From an uncultured Bdellovibrio sp. (GTDB lineage: Bacteria > Bdellovibrionota > Bdellovibrionia > Bdellovibrionales > Bdellovibrionaceae): a stretch of 64,000 nucleotides of DNA. Shown one piece after another: positions 1,738-64,000 of the stretch. Positions within the stretch are counted from its first letter, which is position 1. Each line of letters begins with the position of its first letter. The position numbers were made by a program, and so were the translations under genes. The notes under the pieces were generated by a model that worked only from the letters and a program-made list of their open reading frames with translations, was not told the origin of the DNA and did not search any database. The stretch covers positions 160,001-224,000 of the forward strand of contig CAWVRN010000002.1 in NCBI GenBank assembly GCA_963932905.1, in the 5' to 3' direction.

Positions 1738-3018
1738 TTATAACCTCTGTATATGGCGAGGTTTGGTAATCAAATTTATATCTGTTTCGCGGGTCATGAC
1801 TTCGGGTTTTACGAAGATGACCAGTTCGGTGCGCTTTTCTTTGAAATCGCGACTGGAAAAAAGTGGTCCCAGTATCGGTAGTTGGGACAGCAATGGCAGC
1901 CCTGAATAGCTGTTGCCATCAACTTCCTTAAGAAGTCCTGATAATGCAATGATCTTGGTTTCTGGTAAGTCAAAAAAACTAGAAACCTTATTTGTCGTAA
2001 TACCAGGAACGCCATCAACGCTTAAACTGGAATCAATTGAAGAAACTTCCGTTTGTAGTGAAACACTGATTCGGCCCAGATAATCCGCTTTAGGCTTAAC
2101 TTTTAGGTAGACTCCATATTTTTTCCAAACGATATCACTTGAGTATCTAGATACAGTTTTAATAGGGATTTCTCCACCAGCCCAGAAGTCGGCTTCTTTG
2201 CCACTTTTGCAGAGAATATTTGGACTGGCTAGCAGGCGGCCTTTACCCGCCGTTTCCATCATATGCAGTTCTGCTTCAAATGATTTAATTTGATTGGTAG
2301 GCAGTATTTCCGATTTAAGTGGCGAGCCTAATTCTATTCCGTATCGCTGAATAAATGCGCGATCTATTTCAGCTACGGTGATTTGGACTTTGATGATGGG
2401 TTCTAAAATCAATGATGTAGTGTCTTTAGAAACAGGTATGCCGAATTTTTTTAAAAGTGTTCGGTAAGTTTGGATATGCGGATCTTTTGGATTCAGTTTA
2501 AGTTCCGGTTCGCTTTCAAAATTAATTCGTTGATCTGCGAGCCCGCGATTTCTAAATTGTGAGATAAAATAGGCTTTAACTTCTGGAATTAATTCCGGTG
2601 CAATTTTCGCTTTGAAAACGTATTCATCGTTATTCCCCATATGGTCCGCTATGTAGAGCCAGTCTTTTAAGCGAAACAGATGTCCGGCAATTTCAACTCG
2701 CGATTGATTTACGTTCAGCTTTAAACCTAAGCGATTTTTTAAAATTCCCGATAGTTTATTATAGAGGTCCATTTCGTTAGGCTTTATCACTTGAACAAGA
2801 TAAAGAGAGTTTTTATTTTTCAAGTAACTAGTGCCTGTTTCAATTGCTGTAACCTTGAGTTGATTGCCAATGGCGCTAACTCGAATGATGCTTTTTTTTT
2901 CGATCCAGACTTGGTTGCCTTGAATGGGTATTTGAGTGCTGTCCCCAAGGGGAATGATCAGGTCTTTGCATAGACCGGGCAGGACAAAAAGAACGCTGAG
3001 TAAAAAGAATTTTATCAT
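1738..3018 (-). CDS. cpaC: Tad pilus secretin, CpaC/RcpA family
   Basis: signal peptide; secretin C-domain motifs LASPNIL..SGKEA, GGEIP, GLPLLSQLPILGPLF, TELVIFVKP; adjacent to cpaF. Confidence 0.85.
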   Translation of the reverse strand: MIKFFLLSVLFVLPGLCKDLIIPLGDSTQIPIQGNQVWIEKKSIIRVSAIGNQLKVTAIETGTSYLKNKNSLYLVQVIKPNEMDLYNKLSGILKNRLGLKLNVNQSRVEIAGHLFRLKDWLYIADHMGNNDEYVFKAKIAPELIPEVKAYFISQFRNRGLADQRINFESEPELKLNPKDPHIQTYRTLLKKFGIPVSKDTTSLILEPIIKVQITVAEIDRAFIQRYGIELGSPLKSEILPTNQIKSFEAELHMMETAGKGRLLASPNILCKSGKEADFWAGGEIPIKTVSRYSSDIVWKKYGVYLKVKPKADYLGRISVSLQTEVSSIDSSLSVDGVPGITTNKVSSFFDLPETKIIALSGLLKEVDGNSYSGLPLLSQLPILGPLFSSRDFKEKRTELVIFVKPEVMTRETDINLITKPRHIQRL

Positions 3019-57352: not shown

Positions 57353-58051
57353 ATGAATTGGTTTCACGTACTGTTGGCTTTATTACTGCTTTCTTTAAAC
57401 GGTTACGCCAACAATAGGGTTAGTTTATCGGAATATCTGCGTAAATATAGTATTGCCGACCTTCGTCCTACGCAGGCTGCCGTTGGTTTTCGTGAAGTAA
57501 AACGGAAAAAGAACAAAATCGAAAATCTTAAATCACATAAAAATCTGCAAGAGTATTTTGAAGGTAATTCGGTGCCGGTAGTTTTGGGGCCAAATGATCA
57601 AGTCTATATGATTGATCATCATCATTTTACCCTAGCGGCTAGCCGGGCTGGGTATAACGAAGTCTATATTCACATAATTGCCGATTTATCTGCGCTCAAC
57701 ATTCAGCAATTTTGGAAAGAAATGAAATCGAGAGCCTGGGTTTATTTGAAAATTAAAGGTCGCACCATTAGTGAATATATGCTGCCACGATATATTACGG
57801 GATTGGTGGATGACCCGTATCGTGCTTTAGCCGGGAAAGTTCTTCAAAAAGACGGCTTCAAAAAAACGGAAACTCCGTTCGCAGAATTTGAATGGGCTGA
57901 TTTTTTTCGCACGCGTATTTCTTCAGAGTTAGTTGATAAGGACTATACCAGAGCCGTTGAGGTTGCTTTGAAACTTGCAAAGACCGATGCCGCAAAGAAA
58001 CTACCGGGATATAACGGTAACGCGCTTTGCATCGAAGTCTATGCTCAATAA
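57353..58051 (+). CDS. ParB-like (ParBc_2-type) protein with signal peptide
   Basis: LRPTQ.AVG..EV, PVVLGP, IDHHH, DDPYR, PF.EF.WADF.R, LPG. Confidence 0.85.
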   Translation: MNWFHVLLALLLLSLNGYANNRVSLSEYLRKYSIADLRPTQAAVGFREVKRKKNKIENLKSHKNLQEYFEGNSVPVVLGPNDQVYMIDHHHFTLAASRAGYNEVYIHIIADLSALNIQQFWKEMKSRAWVYLKIKGRTISEYMLPRYITGLVDDPYRALAGKVLQKDGFKKTETPFAEFEWADFFRTRISSELVDKDYTRAVEVALKLAKTDAAKKLPGYNGNALCIEVYAQ

Positions 58052-58126: not shown

Positions 58127-59350
58127 ATGACAAACACCGCGACTACATCAAAAAAATCTATTTATTTTATATTTGCTACGATCATGCTGGATATGATCGG
58201 TATTGGTTTAATCATGCCGGTATTGCCAGACGTAATTAGACGTTTTATTTCTGATCCTGGTCAGGTCACTGAAAATTTTGGATATTTTATCGCAATTTAC
58301 GCAGTCATGCAGTTTGTGGCATCACCTATATTAGGTGGCTTATCTGATCAGTTCGGTCGTCGTCCAATTTTACTTGGTTCTTTGTTGGGTGCCGGTATCG
58401 ATTATATTTTTATGGCTTTAGCGCCGTCGCTGAATTTACTTTTCTTGGGCCGTATTATCGCAGGGCTGACTGGCGCTAGCATGACGGTGGCTAATTCTTA
58501 CATTGCGGATATTTCGGACGATAGTAATCGTTCGTCTAATTTTGGAATGATTGGAGCTGCTTTTGGGATTGGATTTATTGCCGGTCCAATCATAGGTGGT
58601 TTGCTGGGACACTTTGGTCCGCAAATGCCGTTCTACGGTGCTGCCGTATTAAATATTTTAAATTTCTTATTTGGGTTATTTATTTTACCCGAATCTTTGA
58701 AAAAGGAAAATCGGCGAGTTGTTAACTGGAAAAAACTAAATCCGTTCACGACGATCGTTAACACGATGAAAATTCCGGCCATGAGTTTGTTTGTATTAAC
58801 ATACGCATTGTTGTTCCTTGCTGGTAACGTGCATCCAAGCGTTTGGACACTGTACACAGAATCTAAATTTGGTTGGAACTCAATCCAAGTAGGCATTTCG
58901 CTTAGCTTCGTTGGATTAATTTACGGAATGAGCCAGTCGTTGTTAACCTCAAAATTAGTTCCGAAGTGGGGCGAACAAAAATCACTGGTCATCGGAATTT
59001 TCTTTAATGCGTTTGGATTTTTGTTATATGGAATCGCGCCATTTGGTTGGATGATGTATGGGATTATGGTGCTGTCGGCACTACAGGGACTATCGATGCC
59101 GTGTTTGCAATCGATTATGACCAAAAAAGTAGACGTTCGCTATCAGGGAGAATTACAAGGTGGACTGGTTTCTGTTGGCAGTCTCACATCGATTTTAGCG
59201 CCGCTGATTTATACAAATACCTTCAATTGGGGATCCCAATCGGGCGAAATGATGTTGTTAGGTGCGCCTTATTTTGTGGCCACGTTGTTCGGATTGCTCG
59301 CTCTATTTTTGGTTCAAAAAAGCTTGGGAAATAGGCCAGCACAAGTCTAG
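58127..59350 (+). CDS. TetA/TCR family MFS efflux transporter
   Basis: LD.IGIGLIMPVLP, motif A G.LSDQFGRRP, GRIIAG.TGA, QGELQG. Confidence 0.92.
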   Translation: MTNTATTSKKSIYFIFATIMLDMIGIGLIMPVLPDVIRRFISDPGQVTENFGYFIAIYAVMQFVASPILGGLSDQFGRRPILLGSLLGAGIDYIFMALAPSLNLLFLGRIIAGLTGASMTVANSYIADISDDSNRSSNFGMIGAAFGIGFIAGPIIGGLLGHFGPQMPFYGAAVLNILNFLFGLFILPESLKKENRRVVNWKKLNPFTTIVNTMKIPAMSLFVLTYALLFLAGNVHPSVWTLYTESKFGWNSIQVGISLSFVGLIYGMSQSLLTSKLVPKWGEQKSLVIGIFFNAFGFLLYGIAPFGWMMYGIMVLSALQGLSMPCLQSIMTKKVDVRYQGELQGGLVSVGSLTSILAPLIYTNTFNWGSQSGEMMLLGAPYFVATLFGLLALFLVQKSLGNRPAQV

Positions 59351-59517
59351 TTGCGTGGATCATTCCGTCGAGCTTATTGACGGTGACTGTCTGTGACTCA
59401 ATGTAAATCGTTTAGCTAGGCTTGTGTGGTTATATCAAATAGGACTTACTTCAGATTGGAACGGTTATCGCTAGATAAACTCTGGAAATATCAGTCTCGT
59501 TTGAATAGAGGAAGTCA

Positions 59518-61635
59518 ATGCCACAGGCTACGGACCAGCGTCAAAGATTCTTGTCAATCTCAATGTCTATTTTACTGGTCATTTCGCTTCTCGTTTCAGT
59601 TGTCCCTTCGACATCTACGGCTGTCGCTTCAAGCCAACATTGTTCACAATTTTATCGCGGCTTTAAAACAGATGTGTTGTTCGGGATTTCCCCGACAGCT
59701 GGAGTTTATACATCTAGAGCATCCGACTTTGTTTCTGTGAAGAAGGCCATTGAACGTGTGAACGAAGCGGTCAGTTTATCACATAAAAGCCATAAAAAAG
59801 TGTCCATGGCTAATAGTCGAAATTTATTTGTTCTTAGCGAGCAATGGGAACCATTAGCAAGTTCTTTCGCAGCTTATGAAAACGCAAGATTTGTTGTTGC
59901 CGATAAAATGATCGACGCACCCACTGGCACTGTCTTGTACAAAAATGTTCAGTTCGGCTACAAAGGTGTGCAAAAGACGGGACCCTATTTAGATAAATTA
60001 AAAAAATCGGGATTTAAAAATTATGGGACATTGACCTATATTTTGGCAGACGCAATGTCTGGAAAAATATTAGAGGTTGGCGGAATTCATAAGGATCTTT
60101 TGGCCGAATTTAGGTTGCATTTACTAGGACGTGAAGTTCAAGAAAAAGAACTACGACGTTATTCAGAAGTTTATAAGATGATGATCGAGCATTTCCAGCG
60201 ACAGGCAGACGGTCGCGTTGTACTTGCCGAATTTAATAGAAAACGAGGATGGCCAGAAGGATTTGCAGAAAATGCCGGGCTTTTCTACTTAGAAAATGTT
60301 CAGGCTCTAATTGCGTGGGCTCGACAAAACCAAGTAACTCAAGAAGAACTAGTGCGAATGGGTGTTGTTCGTCGTAACTATACCCAGTTAGGAACTCGAA
60401 ACGAGTATTCGATGATATGTTCCCATTCGATAATGATCCCATATTTTTCTCCAAAAGGCGATGTGGTCAAACTTAAAGCGCGACAACTAAAAAAGACTAC
60501 GACAGGTAAAAAGTATCTCGATTTTTCAGAAGATAAAACCATCACCAATGGTAATCAGTTACATCGACGTTTATTTAATTCGGCTGTGTTAAATCATATC
60601 CAAGGCAAACCAGTTATTATTACCGAAGGCGAAATTAAAAGCCTGGTGGCCACACGAATTGGTAAAATTGATACTGTGGCTATTCCTGGAATCAGCCAAT
60701 TTGAAGACGACATGGCTCATGCGCTTGTTGCGGCCAAAGCGTCAGAATATATTGTTGTTTTAGATCGTGATCCTGAAGGTAAAGCATTGATGAATTTGGA
60801 TCATTTGACGGACAGCCAGCGTGCTGCCTACGTTATTGCTGCAAAATTAGAAGAAGCTGGAGCTCCTGTGGTTAAAGTCGGCATAATCCCGGATTCACAA
60901 GGGACTGGTAGTAAAATAGGCCTTGATGATATGATATTACAACACGGCCCTGACAGTGTAAAAGATCTTGTCAAAAATGCTAAGCCACTAAAAGCATATG
61001 CTGAAGCTATTCACGCAGATCAACAAATTGCCGAGAATATAGGGATACAAACGATATTGACTCAAGCTCTACGTGTTGGACATTTAGCAATGAAAAATGG
61101 GTTGGCTTCTGTTGATGCCAATGATGTTCGGATGTTAGAAAAATTTAGATCTCAAGTACTTGCTGATTTTGAAAATCATTTGGCGACTAATTATCCGGGT
61201 TCTCGAAATCTAAGACAACCTACTTATGGATATAAATTTATTCCACCTCAAACAGATCAAATGCCTAATCCAAGAAAATTCAAAGCTCAAGGGGGCGATC
61301 CCGAATTAAGTTTCGGTCGAAAAGACTTTCTGAATGCCATTCTACTGTTTGAAGTTGTCGATTCAAAATCAAGTTTGATAGATAACGACCTGATTGTTGC
61401 GACCAACCAAAAGACACGAGAGCAATTGAAGGTGATTTTTCCAAATGACGAATATGGATTTGCAGAAAATGTCACGATTAGTAAGTCTTTCGGTGGGGCG
61501 ATGGAGACTATTCAGGTTCCTCTGCTGATCTATCGATTGGAATCCCATAAAGTTGTGGCTCTGGCTCGTCCCTCAGAGCTGACCAAACAAGAAGAAAGTG
61601 ACTGGGATTCTGATTTGTTGGCCATGGTCCGTTAA
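59518..61635 (+). CDS. DnaG-type TOPRIM primase-core protein with apparent N-terminal export signal
   Basis: KRG..G, IMIPY....G.VV..KAR, KYL, LFN, VIITEGEIK, VAIPG, VLDRD, KIGLDD; hydrophobic N-terminus ending AVA. Confidence 0.8.
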   Translation: MPQATDQRQRFLSISMSILLVISLLVSVVPSTSTAVASSQHCSQFYRGFKTDVLFGISPTAGVYTSRASDFVSVKKAIERVNEAVSLSHKSHKKVSMANSRNLFVLSEQWEPLASSFAAYENARFVVADKMIDAPTGTVLYKNVQFGYKGVQKTGPYLDKLKKSGFKNYGTLTYILADAMSGKILEVGGIHKDLLAEFRLHLLGREVQEKELRRYSEVYKMMIEHFQRQADGRVVLAEFNRKRGWPEGFAENAGLFYLENVQALIAWARQNQVTQEELVRMGVVRRNYTQLGTRNEYSMICSHSIMIPYFSPKGDVVKLKARQLKKTTTGKKYLDFSEDKTITNGNQLHRRLFNSAVLNHIQGKPVIITEGEIKSLVATRIGKIDTVAIPGISQFEDDMAHALVAAKASEYIVVLDRDPEGKALMNLDHLTDSQRAAYVIAAKLEEAGAPVVKVGIIPDSQGTGSKIGLDDMILQHGPDSVKDLVKNAKPLKAYAEAIHADQQIAENIGIQTILTQALRVGHLAMKNGLASVDANDVRMLEKFRSQVLADFENHLATNYPGSRNLRQPTYGYKFIPPQTDQMPNPRKFKAQGGDPELSFGRKDFLNAILLFEVVDSKSSLIDNDLIVATNQKTREQLKVIFPNDEYGFAENVTISKSFGGAMETIQVPLLIYRLESHKVVALARPSELTKQEESDWDSDLLAMVR

Positions 61636-61787
61636 GGACATAGCCTTGGCCAGGTATTGCGTCAAAAGATGGCCAAGTTTTATTAGTAATTCGCAAAAAA
61701 TCCCGAACGCCTATGGTTATAACTAAACAGTTTTGACATTAGTATTTTAGCTCTAATATGATCACTCTATCTAAATAGGGGTGTGTG

Positions 61788-64000
61788 ATGAAATTATTGG
61801 TGGGGTTATTTCTATTAACAATGAATGTCTTTGCATTAGATTCACGGACTAAGCCGCCGGCAGAAAAGCCACCGGCAGATCGTTCTGCTGATGTAAACCG
61901 AGTGAATGTATTCGCAAATAAGAATTCGCTAGATCAAGTCCTTGGAGATCAAAAATTCCAAGAACGATTTGCCGCCATCACCGGTCCTTTAGAACAGCAA
62001 TGGCCAGCCATCACAACGGATTTGAAAAGTCGCTTCAGTCGTGAAATTGACCGCTACAATTTTTCAACTGTGTTTGGTCTTCAAGGAAATAAACTAAAAA
62101 TTCTGGGCGGTAATGTCGCCGAGATCGAAACAAATATTAAAAACTTTCAAATTTCTGCAGACGCATACTACCGCTTAGAATTAAAACCTTCGTTCCGTGA
62201 AGGTAAACAAATGCGTAAAGATATCTATGTGATTGGTTTGAAAGGATCGAGCACGATTTCGATCGGTTCTGAAGTCAGAATTACTTTCTTCCGTGAATTT
62301 GATTCAAAAGCCGATGCCTTATCAAATTTAAAACCGTACGGTTTGGACCGTATACCTAAAAGTTCGGCAGATTTAATTAAGAAAATTAATATCGATGACG
62401 GTGTTCGCGTAGAAGTAATGGGAAATTTAGAAATTTCGAAAGAGTTTAATAAAATCGCGAATAGTTCAAACTTGTCGGCGATCTTGGGTTACGACTTGTT
62501 TCAAGGCCTATTCACGGCCGATATCTATCGCTACACGGAAACTGATGTACGTGCGCGTTTCATGGGAACGATCAATCGGGGTACAGTGAAAGCAAAAGCG
62601 GGTTTGAACTGGCTGTATAGCTTTAAAGGAGCGAAGATTTTACCACGATGGTTAAAAGAGTTATTTGAAGTGAATTTAGATGTTAATATTTCTAAGTCGT
62701 TTAACTTTTTCGATAGGTATCCTATCGAAACTCACGTTGCTGATTACTATTTTAGATTTAACAATATGACGTTGATACAAGCTTCAGTTCCACCGGGTTG
62801 TAACTTTCAAGTTCCAACGGGTATTGCCTCTATTGATAGCGCAGGATTAAGCCCTGAGGCGGCGTTTGACGAAGTTCTTCATAATGTTCGTAGTGGTAAA
62901 TTCATGGCTGTCTTTAATCCTAATCTCGAAGAGTCTGCATTGTCAGCCTCTTTCCTAAGAAATGCCTCTCGAGCGGAAACCATAGCCTGTGTGGATGCCT
63001 CGTTGCCAAATTATAAAAAACGCGTACAGCATTTTTTCAAGGGCCGCATGTTGTCTGATGTGTTCTCTTTGAACTTTGGTCCTAAGATCAGTCATTTGCT
63101 ACGTAGTACTCAAACAGAAGGAAATTCTGAAGTGTATGTGGCCTCACTAGAAAGAGGACAAGAATTTAACTACTACATTTTGCTAAATACCGCGACGAAG
63201 ACTGAAAATTCGTTTTTATTTGGCCGGTGGGAAAACGAATACGAATCAGATTTGGATGCTTTATATCAATCGGACAAGGAAAAAAATATTCGTGGGTTTT
63301 TGGATTTCGTAAAGCGTATTCAGTACCGTGACAAAGTAATGTCGACGTCTAAATTAAGTGAAATCCGCGACATCCTAGCAAGATCAATCCCGACGAATTT
63401 TCCAGATAGAAATAAATTGTTGGATTTGGTTCCAAAAACAGAACAACGTGATGCGTGGATTTCTTTTGTCTACACATTGTCTAGTCGGGTTATTTTTGAA
63501 TTAGAAAAAATGGACAAATTGGTTTTGTACACGAAGTTAGCTAACTTCGTTGCAAATCACCCAGAAAGAAATCGGATGGGTTTGCCATCCGATAATAACG
63601 AGGGTGGTGAAATGAATCAGACTGAATATATCAATGAGTTATACTATCGCTTGGTGAAATTAACGGATTCGACTCAAAATTCAAAAGATCGTTTTCGAGC
63701 GTTAGAACAATTGATGAAAGACCGGATTTTCACTGAATATATATTCCGAGAATTCTTTCCATCATTGATTACGTCAGATATCGCCAATAATGAAATGAGT
63801 GTGGCAATGAGTGTAACCTCAAAAGATATCACTTTGGCTGAAGATCGTATCGGTAACAACCAATACTCCCAAGTCTACAGTGCTGTTCTGCTACTACGAT
63901 CGATCCTAAATGATAGATCACTAGATATCCGTTTAGAAAGCGCCACTGCGGCGGATCCGTCGGCGGACGCTGTATCTGGTCCTAATTCCTCGAACCCAGT
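61788..64000 (+). CDS. large secreted hypothetical protein, runs off the window end (not in ORF track)
   Basis: AGGGG RBS; MKLLVGLFLLTMNVFA signal; I translated only the first ~220 codons and the last codons and saw no stop; absence from the track fits an ORF open to the window end (>730 codons). Confidence 0.8.
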   Translation, partial: MKLLVGLFLLTMNVFALDSRTKPPAEKPPADRSADVNRVNVFANKNSLDQVLGDQKFQERFAAITGPLEQQWPAITTDLKSRFSREIDRYNFSTVFGLQGNKLKILGGNVAEIETNIKNFQISADAYYRLELKPSFREGKQMRKDIYVIGLKGSSTISIGSEVRITFFREFDSKADALSNLKPYGLDRIPKSSADLIKKINIDDGVRVEVMGNLEISKEFNKIANSSNLSAILGYDLFQGLFTADIYRYTETDVRARFMGTINRGTVKAKAGLNWLYSFKGAKILPRWLKELFEVNLDVNISKSFNFFDRYPIETHVADYYFRFNNMTLIQASVPPGCNFQVPTGIASIDSAGLSPEAAFDEVLHNVRSGKFMAVFNPNLEESALSASFLRNASRAETIACVDASLPNYKKRVQHFFKGRMLSDVFSLNFGPKISHLLRSTQTEGNSEVYVASLERGQEFNYYILLNTATKTENSFLFGRWENEYESDLDALYQSDKEKNIRGFLDFVKRIQYRDKVMSTSKLSEIRDILARSIPTNFPDRNKLLDLVPKTEQRDAWISFVYTLSSRVIFELEKMDKLVLYTKLANFVANHPERNRMGLPSDNNEGGEMNQTEYINELYYRLVKLTDSTQNSKDRFRALEQLMKDRIFTEYIFREFFPSLITSDIANNEMSVAMSVTSKDITLAEDRIGNNQYSQVYSAVLLLRSILNDRSLDIRLESATAADPSADAVSGPNSSNP

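Follow-up and report, generated by a model that had tools for sequence, protein, structure and literature searches.

DnaG-type primases are known as cytoplasmic enzymes of replication. Replicative DnaG, as represented by the structures 5guj, 4edg, 5w33, 1dd9, and 2au3, has a three-subdomain RNA-polymerase core together with a CHC2 zinc finger, a DnaB-binding tail, and a dnaG-rpoD gene context. Here we describe a DnaG-like gene of an uncultured Bdellovibrio sp. (assembly GCA_963932905.1), at positions 59518 to 61635 of the + strand in a 64,000-nucleotide stretch of contig CAWVRN010000002.1 (contig positions 160,001 to 224,000); this whole stretch is called the window below, and positions are counted from its first nucleotide. 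The product has the core in common with replicative DnaG (Z scores of 18 to 21) and keeps the Toprim Glu, the DxD, the third acidic pair, and the KY and Arg residues. Pfam, however, matches neither a zinc finger nor a DnaB-binding tail in it, the gene has no rpoD nearby, and it adds a predicted export signal, a Cys tag, two unrelated flanking domains, and a Lys in place of the Asp of EGYMD.

The sole precedent that we found for an exported primase comes from conjugation. Passages of one paper describe the TraC1 (RP4) and SogL (R64) primases as being transferred into recipient cells (PMC5512222); these, too, belong to the DnaG-type Toprim primases, and they leave the producer and act in another cell. 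They are carried along with DNA by type IV secretion without a Sec signal, and the plasmid strand that they prime is the transferred one, whereas the gene studied here encodes a predicted Sec-type signal and lies in a chromosomal, syntenic locus with no transfer genes nearby. The same passages assign the domains Toprim_2/3/4 to mobile-element primases (PMC5512222). A second comparison is with the Toprim nucleases RNase M5 and OLD, which have the same fold and acidic triad (6tg6, Z 9.1 in VIA; 6z2b and 6p74 in Foldseek) but lack the DnaG N-terminal and helical subdomains, and their matches cover only residues ~362 to 500 of our protein. To our knowledge, the Toprim nucleases described so far are all without the DnaG N-subdomain.

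A literature search, with most subscription journals outside its coverage, turned up neither a Sec-exported DnaG-like protein nor the tag. The passages at hand from a study of secreted two-gene effector systems in Bdellovibrionota do not mention an exported DnaG-like family (PMC12419801), and those from a 2025 review call the experimental evidence for predator enzymes and secretion systems limited and the export of lytic enzymes poorly understood (PMC12428579). On the evidence below, we lean toward reading the protein as an exported, fast-evolving, and probably prey-directed nucleic-acid enzyme, one member of a tagged exported arsenal.

Results

A DnaG core with a conserved active-site pattern

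The open reading frame (ORF), taken from the first ATG of the open frame, encodes 705 amino acids, of which just two are Cys. Its features are as follows.

59507 to 59512, + strand: Shine-Dalgarno-like AGAGGA, 5 nucleotides upstream of the ATG, read from the sequence.
59518 to 59628, + strand: predicted Sec/signal peptidase I (SPase I) signal peptide, residues 1 to 37, with R8 and R10 in the n-region, an h-region at ~F11 to V29, then P30, and a c-region ending in A35-V-A37, followed by S38.
59641 to 59655, + strand: post-signal tag C42-S-Q-F-Y46 (C-x-x-[F/V]-Y), with C42 present in at least 90% of 29 aligned relatives.
59656 to 60141, + strand: N-terminal domain, family unassigned, residues ~47 to 208, with invariant Y148 and near-invariant F146-G147 in alignment A1 (described below).
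60142 to 61182, + strand: DnaG-type RNA-polymerase domain (N-subdomain, Toprim, and helical subdomain), residues ~209 to 555, from VIA, Foldseek, a PDB profile, and TIGR01391.
60604 to 60957, + strand: Toprim fold, residues ~363 to 480, with invariant T369-E370-G371, K374, D416-R-D418, K466, G468, and D470-D471.
61231 to 61632, + strand: conserved C-terminal alpha/beta domain, residues 572 to 705, with the pattern F641-P642-x-[DE]-[ED]-Y646...P668...[KR]673-[KR]674...A681.

Consistent with a DnaG core, TIGR01391 matches residues 208 to 513 (E 1.2e-12), the primase family PHROG_47 matches at E 7e-12, and the PDB profile of 5guj matches at E 1.4e-5; Pfam DNAG_N, Toprim_3, and DUF3854 match weakly, all below their cut-offs. 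An AlphaFold model made from a 29-sequence alignment (mean predicted local distance difference test [pLDDT] score 80.6, predicted template-modeling [pTM] score 0.77) gave, as its first 14 Foldseek rows, nothing other than DnaG RNA-polymerase domains (E 2e-13 to 5e-10; 2au3 at E 2.3e-13 and 4edg with a template-modeling score of 0.72). In VIA, model residues 210 to 555 superpose on 5guj with Z 21.2, and 261 residues superpose on 5w33 with Z 19.1 and a root mean square deviation of 3.0 Å. Judging from the model, the DnaG core is real and complete rather than a chance match.

The initial annotation of this DNA had reported a protein with an export signal and a DnaG catalytic core, and that observation is confirmed. 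The profile and fold matches bear out the core, and every motif named at the time is found where it was placed: I307-P308-Y309..G314..K320-A-R322 (IPY..G.VV..KAR), K332-Y333-L334, L358-F-N (residues 358 to 360), T369-E-G-E-I-K374 with the E370 codon at 60625 to 60627, and L415-D-R-D418 at 60760 to 60771. The absence of a CHC2 zinc finger, also remarked on there, agrees with the lack of a Pfam zf-CHC2 match and with the low Cys count. Four features go beyond that description, namely, the conserved C-terminal domain, an Asp-to-Lys change in EGxxD, signal-less long relatives with double-stranded RNA (dsRNA)-binding domains, and an EEP-family partner.

Alignment A1 holds 29 sequences that are 24 to 64% identical to the window protein. 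T369, E370, G371, K374, D416, R417, D418, K466, G468, D470, D471, R243, I307, P308, R322, and Y333 are invariant in all 29, and it is this invariance of the catalytic residues, although the sequences have diverged so far, that marks the active-site pattern as conserved. A profile alignment (hhalign) to the genome's own DnaG sets RGW on RGL, IPF...RTR on FPI...GGR, PKYLSWP on PKYLNSP, EGEIK on EGYMD, DRD on DGD, and DD on DPDD. By this motif alignment, the acidic metal ligands are kept except for one: a family-specific invariant Lys (K374) stands at the Asp position of EGxxD (EGYMD). The basic residues that align with the DnaG template and nucleoside triphosphate (NTP) groove, R243, R322, and K332-Y333, are kept as well. 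The Asp of EGYMD has a catalytic role in E. coli DnaG, and roles are known for individual residues of the E. coli and S. aureus enzymes.

A predicted export signal kept while the sequence diverges

Signal peptides were called with a home-made heuristic, the Kyte-Doolittle mean over a 9-residue hydrophobic window, together with conservation in relatives. The hydrophobic core of the window protein, ILLVISLLV, has a mean hydropathy of 3.53. The heuristic flags 25 of 31 short forms of the family (up to 760 amino acids), against 2 of the 27 longer ones and 1 of 31 primases from the outgroup; one of the two flagged longer proteins is P0049, which has an added EEP domain. By eye, the n/h/c pattern is present at all eight loci of strong relatives (seven from the same genus and one from another genus of the family) and in all 11 short forms found in genome loci, as well as in P0003 and P0004 (64 and 62% identity). 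Thus, as far as sequence can tell, a signal-like N-terminus is conserved across the family, down to relatives of 24% identity, while the N-terminal sequence itself is not. Within the limits of the heuristic, this agrees with the Sec signal first proposed and answers the question, raised at that time, of whether homologs retain it.

The choice of start codon does not alter this picture. A database gene call (P0002, 690 amino acids) begins at M16 (ATG at 59563), which has no comparable Shine-Dalgarno-like run ahead of it; the hydrophobic core and the A-V-A site are retained with either start.

A Cys tag just past the signal

The near-invariance of C42 led us to scan the whole genome for the tag. 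The pattern C-x-x-[FYVILW]-Y occurs 201 times in 3,995 crude ORFs. Counted in 10-residue bins from the N-terminus, the occurrences number 3, 6, 23, 22, 9, 10, 4, 12, 0, 3, 2, 1, 7, 3, 2, 1, 4, 3, 2, and 3, so that residues 20 to 39 form a peak (23 and 22, versus 0 to 12 in the other 18 bins). There are 72 matches at residues 12 to 69, of which 45 follow a hydrophobic segment; on inspection by eye, 7 of these looked like transmembrane segments or had no signal and were removed. The 38 signal-bearing tagged ORFs that remain (example loci are L086, L080, L075, L065, L076, L088, and L070) include our protein. Relative to the Cys, their profile is Ala rich from -7 to -5, position -2 is mostly N or S (N in 12/38), position -1 is S, A, T, Q, L, or E (S in 11/38), and position +3 is F in 28/38 and V in 6/38; Y at +4 is imposed by the search pattern and is not independent evidence.

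Two ordinary explanations of such a Cys were set aside. It does not fit a lipoprotein (SPase II) site, since there is no lipobox ([LVI][ASTVI][GAS]C) and our protein has S-Q-H-C at this point. Nor is an intramolecular disulfide likely: the tag Cys is the sole Cys in 20 of 36 tagged ORFs, and the Cys count is odd in 28 of 36, so that the tag Cys is usually unpaired.

We asked Pfam about 37 tagged ORFs plus a near-tag EEP paralog (38 in all). Twelve had a match over the cut-off, 3 had sub-cut-off matches only, and 23 had none. The over-cut-off families are ADPrib_exo_Tox, RelA_SpoT, GNAT (Acetyltransf_3), UDPGP, PLDc_2, Pep_deformylase, a glycerol-3-phosphate-oxidase-like DAO, peptidases S41, S9, and C1, an alpha/beta hydrolase, and RTC4. 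Several of these tagged enzymes need cytoplasmic cosubstrates, be it NAD, ATP/GTP, acetyl-CoA, or UTP. NCBIfam, run on the 26 ORFs with no over-cut-off Pfam match (25 tagged ORFs and the gene downstream of the DnaG-like gene), gave two matches only, both far below cut-off.

Elsewhere in the genus, a 400-kb sample of one genome contains three clear tagged ORFs besides its DnaG-like gene. In other genera, members of the family have a less strict version of the tag, L-x-C-x-x-hydrophobic-[F/L/Y]. Short motifs that lie just past the signal of otherwise unrelated secreted proteins in cell-attacking organisms have parallels. Oomycetes have RXLR, Bacteroidota have a lipoprotein export signal, and powdery-mildew effectors reportedly share Y/F/WxC. 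These belong to other organisms and are other motifs, and the tag found here is not a lipobox. It may serve as a sorting signal.

Two family-specific flanking domains

The domain without a recognizable family that the initial annotation placed after the signal corresponds to the N-terminal domain, for which Pfam likewise gives no match. In the model, its strands at residues 138 to 149, 166 to 178, and 184 to 189 have pLDDT values of ~90, while residues 88 to 101 and 151 to 164 fall below 50. Match ranges in the family search indicate that this domain also occurs in the long forms.

The C-terminal domain was modeled separately (pLDDT 77.6). F641 and P642 are present in 29/29 sequences, [DE]644 and [ED]645 in 28/29 each, and [KR]673 in 24/29; Y646, P668, and A681 are conserved. 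Its fold matches are weak: the best has a Z of 5.0 (6wxw), and, going by their titles, some 20 among the 50 top rows are restriction-endonuclease-fold nucleases, including Card1, Can1/Can2, BsaXI, BpuSI, TnsA, NucS, and NucC. Column counts show no acidic residue ahead of the Lys, where a PD-(D/E)xK site would have one. Foldseek returned nothing for the domain model at E ≤ 0.001, Pfam run on 15 sequences gave nothing meaningful, and an ESM Atlas search with residues 575 to 705 gave no usable match. A DnaB-binding domain was likewise not matched by Pfam, with either the full protein or the C-terminal domain, and no DnaG C-terminal domain is among the listed weak fold matches. The model hints at a nuclease-like or DNA-binding fold.

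A family concentrated in predatory Bdellovibrionota

A word-indexed search returned only three proteins, our own and two others at 65 and 63% BLASTP identity. An exhaustive search returned 90 cluster representatives at E ≤ 1e-3, with 63 at ≤ 1e-10 and 47 at ≤ 1e-30. Among 61 related genomes, 13 have matches, 9 of them strong (E < 1e-40); the strong ones are the window genome, 7 of 9 further genomes from its genus, and one genome from another genus of the family. The weak genome matches that were inspected are ordinary dnaG genes with CHC2 N-termini. Ten of the best 13 species-representative loci carry Bdellovibrionota labels (Bdellovibrionales, Bdellovibrionaceae, Pseudobdellovibrionaceae, Bacteriovoracaceae, or Oligoflexia), and the other three are labeled Deltaproteobacteria, Pseudomonadota, and Candidatus Saccharibacteria. 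The family is thus concentrated in predatory Bdellovibrionota.

Its members come in two sizes. Short forms have ~630 to 750 amino acids and a signal-like N-terminus. Long forms (P0013, P0016, P0021 to P0023, P0033, P0034, P0039, and others; loci L015, L019, L027, and L028) have 890 to 2,099 amino acids and no signal, and they make up one clade in a quick tree (Shimodaira-Hasegawa-like approximate likelihood ratio test [SH-aLRT] support of 99). They contain a second, weak DNAG_N-like/Toprim-like region, marked by HELDAL, and, toward the C-terminus, as many as several motifs for dsRNA binding (dsrm; P0013, P0023, and P0033 match at E 4.8e-12 to 8.4e-25). Their records are labeled Bdellovibrionales, Saccharibacteria, Rickettsiales, and Patescibacteria, lineages that all live on or in other cells. 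Just upstream of the 2,099-amino-acid long form, at L019:2921-3541 (+), is a gene for a 207-amino-acid protein with two dsrm domains and a weak Dicer-dimerization match.

Divergence at a syntenic chromosomal locus

Two of the genes around the DnaG-like gene serve as syntenic anchors.

57353 to 58051, + strand: ParBc_2 "putative ParB-like nuclease," two genes upstream (PF08857, E 3.8e-50), with a signal-like N-terminus and no Cys tag.
58127 to 59350, + strand: MFS transporter, the upstream anchor (Pfam MFS_1, E 2.2e-45).
61785 to 63998, + strand: large signal-bearing protein, the downstream anchor, which runs off the window and has no Pfam or NCBIfam match.

The remaining neighbors are DsbD (- strand), MotA, and MotB. 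The ParBc_2 protein is another usually DNA-associated fold that is apparently exported. A strong promoter-like site at 61733 to 61762 (match 11/12) lies ahead of the downstream gene, which is 81 to 88% identical in four same-genus loci and 50 to 53% identical in two others.

Six same-genus loci keep the gene in this slot. At these loci, identity to the window copy is 74 to 94% for the MFS gene and 50 to 88% for the downstream gene but only 27 to 29% for the DnaG-like gene. In the quick tree, the clade of the window protein (P0001, P0003, and P0004) sits on a stem of 1.79 changes per column and joins the genus clade with an SH-aLRT of 90, a placement that carries a long-branch warning. Either the gene has diverged very fast in place or it has been replaced by a distant allele; the locus as such is chromosomal, syntenic, and fast evolving.

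The replicative primase of this genome is another gene. It lies on another contig, C1, encodes 660 amino acids with a CHC2 finger (CPFPDHKEKTPSF...HCFGC) along with EGYMD, DGD, and DPDD motifs, reaches 415.8 bits, and has an rpoD-like gene directly after it. The DnaG-like gene is therefore separate from the replicative primase, as the initial annotation had proposed to check, and a replicative identity for it was rejected: it scores 47.4 bits against a TIGR01391 cut-off of 283.6, and the true dnaG, with its CHC2 finger, is elsewhere.

The window neighborhood contains no helicase, rpoD, relaxase, integrase, or replication gene, in agreement with the earlier remark that neither rpoD nor a helicase is adjacent. 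Across 12 family loci, the neighbors are unrelated housekeeping or secreted-protein genes, and none of the loci lies in a phage or plasmid replication module, a setting that the initial annotation had named as counting against an exported enzyme. Among 2.9 million viral contigs, there were three weak matches, none of them a family member: L046 and L048 are ~300-amino-acid primases beside DnaB, and L047 lies inside an 855-amino-acid DUF3987 protein. Two other assignments were also set aside. A conjugative or mobile-element primase class has against it the absence of type IV secretion, relaxase, and replication genes among the neighbors in the window and at the 12 family loci and Pfam matches that stay below cut-off. 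The defense class RTasDnaG-like/DRT in PADLOC matches (E 1.6e-11) on the DnaG core only, and there is no reverse transcriptase among the neighbors.

Two observations from other family loci are recorded here. At one Bacteriovoracaceae locus, an RNase_T-type exonuclease gene (E 3.2e-17; L025:2874-3473, +) lies directly upstream of the family member. At an Oligoflexia locus, the gene two ORFs upstream of the family member (L022:16-2232, +) encodes a protein of 739 amino acids that has lectin repeats of the ricin type and matches CDtoxinA weakly.

A candidate EEP phosphodiesterase partner

At two family loci, L014 and L017, the stop codon of the DnaG-like gene lies in an overlap (ATGA) with the gene that follows, which encodes an Exo_endo_phos (EEP) protein of 352 or 338 amino acids with its own signal and Cys motif. 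P0049 (1,174 amino acids) joins a signal, an Exo_endo_phos domain, and the DnaG-like module in a single chain. The DnaG-like family is thus linked to an EEP enzyme by operon or by fusion. The window genome has two EEP paralogs elsewhere; L049 (389 amino acids, on another contig) has a signal and the near-tag FVPACINTY. The EEP catalytic residues are invariant in 14/14 sequences.

Discussion

We imagine the following course of events. The Sec system would export the protein, and SPase I would probably cut after A37, as the sequence and its conservation suggest, leaving a mature N-terminus with the C-x-x-F-Y tag four residues in. The mature protein would keep a complete DnaG RNA-polymerase domain, with two family-specific domains in place of the zinc finger and helicase tail. 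It would then work on nucleic acid beyond the predator's own cytoplasm, in or on the prey most likely, and in some relatives it may do so together with an EEP-family phosphodiesterase. Delivery into prey is favored over a purely periplasmic role because several tagged enzymes would have no substrate outside a cytoplasm and because the NTP/template groove is intact.

The initial annotation had gone on to suggest an enzyme exported into prey and repurposed as a nuclease, a nucleotide-consuming polymerase, or a replication poison. The idea of an exported enzyme turned on prey gains from the separate dnaG, the signal kept in homologs, the concentration in predator lineages, the absence of phage or plasmid modules, and a tag held in common with toxin-type enzymes. 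As to which chemistry is involved, the sequence evidence leaves us about evenly divided between synthesis of short RNAs on prey single-stranded DNA with prey NTPs and cleavage of phosphodiester bonds. The conserved N-subdomain supports binding of nucleotide and template; the Asp-to-Lys change, the EEP partner, and the perhaps nuclease-like C-terminal domain support cleavage.

Several points weigh against a prey-directed enzyme, or against parts of that proposal. The signal heuristic is permissive, flagging 1,154 of 3,828 crude ORFs of the genome, and for this reason we put the weight of the signal evidence on the contrast between groups and on the n/h/c pattern seen by eye. Six of the 31 short forms are not flagged, although two of these, P0018 and P0025, look N-terminally truncated or borderline. 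Given the signal-less long clade with its dsRNA-binding domains, the module also works inside cells. As judged from the alignment, polymerase chemistry could be changed or lost through the invariant Lys at EGxxD. Only 2 of the 12 examined loci have the EEP gene next door, in the window genome it is unlinked, and the solved sequences nearest to the EEP proteins, those of a mannosyl-6-phosphatase (E 2.5e-6) and of sphingomyelinases (E 1e-4), are not nucleases. In 400-kb samples from another genus and from another family, no credible strict tag was found, with one or two looser ones in each. Finally, Sec export alone gives no route across the prey envelope. With respect to possible routes, four secretin matches occur in the genome, including one within the window (1738 to 3018, - strand), and VipB, sought as a sign of type VI secretion, had no match in this genome, which is 98.6% complete, a result that does not prove its absence. 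The genome also has eight TrbI/VirB10-like matches (e.g., C16:70432-71010, C3:241645-242157, and C11:55109-55630).

Some of these points would fit a simpler enzyme. It is possible, if doubtful, that the protein is a digestive or housekeeping Toprim nuclease working in the predator's own periplasm or surroundings, where it would free nucleotides from released DNA and RNA for uptake, with no polymerase activity and no entry into the prey cytoplasm. A Sec signal by itself reaches only the periplasm, and the link to an EEP phosphodiesterase, the signal-bearing ParB-like nuclease two genes upstream, the Lys in the metal site, the weak restriction-endonuclease-like matches of the C-terminal domain, and the matches to the RNase M5 and OLD Toprim folds are all what such a nuclease might be expected to show. 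Against this reading, the full DnaG N-subdomain and the residues aligning with its NTP/template groove are invariant, and the tag is shared with enzymes of no use in the absence of NAD, ATP/GTP, acetyl-CoA, or UTP. The extreme divergence at a conserved locus would also be unusual for a housekeeping hydrolase.

We consider it very unlikely that this is a cytoplasmic primase left behind by a plasmid, an integrative and conjugative element, or a phage, its hydrophobic N-terminus being an uncleaved anchor or a start-codon artifact. Certainly, the best Toprim matches in Pfam are DUF3854 and Toprim_3, which passages of one source assign to mobile-element primases (PMC5512222), and the PADLOC match, the TrbI-like matches in the genome, the database gene call at M16, and the signal-less long relatives might be taken the same way. 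Yet the Shine-Dalgarno-like run stands ahead of M1 and not M16, the hydrophobic core and A-V-A site survive with either start, and even an uncleaved anchor with a positive n-region would place the bulk of the protein outside. Added to this are the lack of helicase, relaxase, integrase, and replication genes in the window neighborhood and the 12 family loci, a chromosomal slot whose synteny extends across the genus, and the near absence of matches among viral contigs. Least probable of all is that a DnaG fold which has lost catalysis now serves as a surface protein, either structural or nucleic-acid binding, with extracellular DNA or prey components as examples of what it might bind: a score far below the curated dnaG cut-off, the Asp-to-Lys substitution, and two added domains without known function would suit it, but the invariance of E370, D416, D418, D470, D471, K466, and the KY/R groove residues in all 29 sequences of A1 would not.

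If the protein is indeed an exported, prey-directed enzyme, one can picture how the tag would serve it. As a speculative scheme, which in its full form we regard as unlikely, the tag may be an address label by which a machinery passes some 40 Sec-exported enzymes from the predator periplasm into prey, where the primase-like enzyme, using prey NTPs, would lay RNA on prey DNA, alone or with the EEP enzyme, and so jam replication or mark the DNA for breakdown.

A predicted export signal and a tag, with two new domains where the zinc finger and helicase tail would be, together with an intact active site, suggest that primase chemistry has been put to a new use beyond the cell that makes the enzyme. 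The shared tag offers a concrete handle, one that can be mutated, on which enzymes Bdellovibrio-like predators choose and how they deliver them to prey. The tag also yields about 40 candidate effectors, most of them without a known family.

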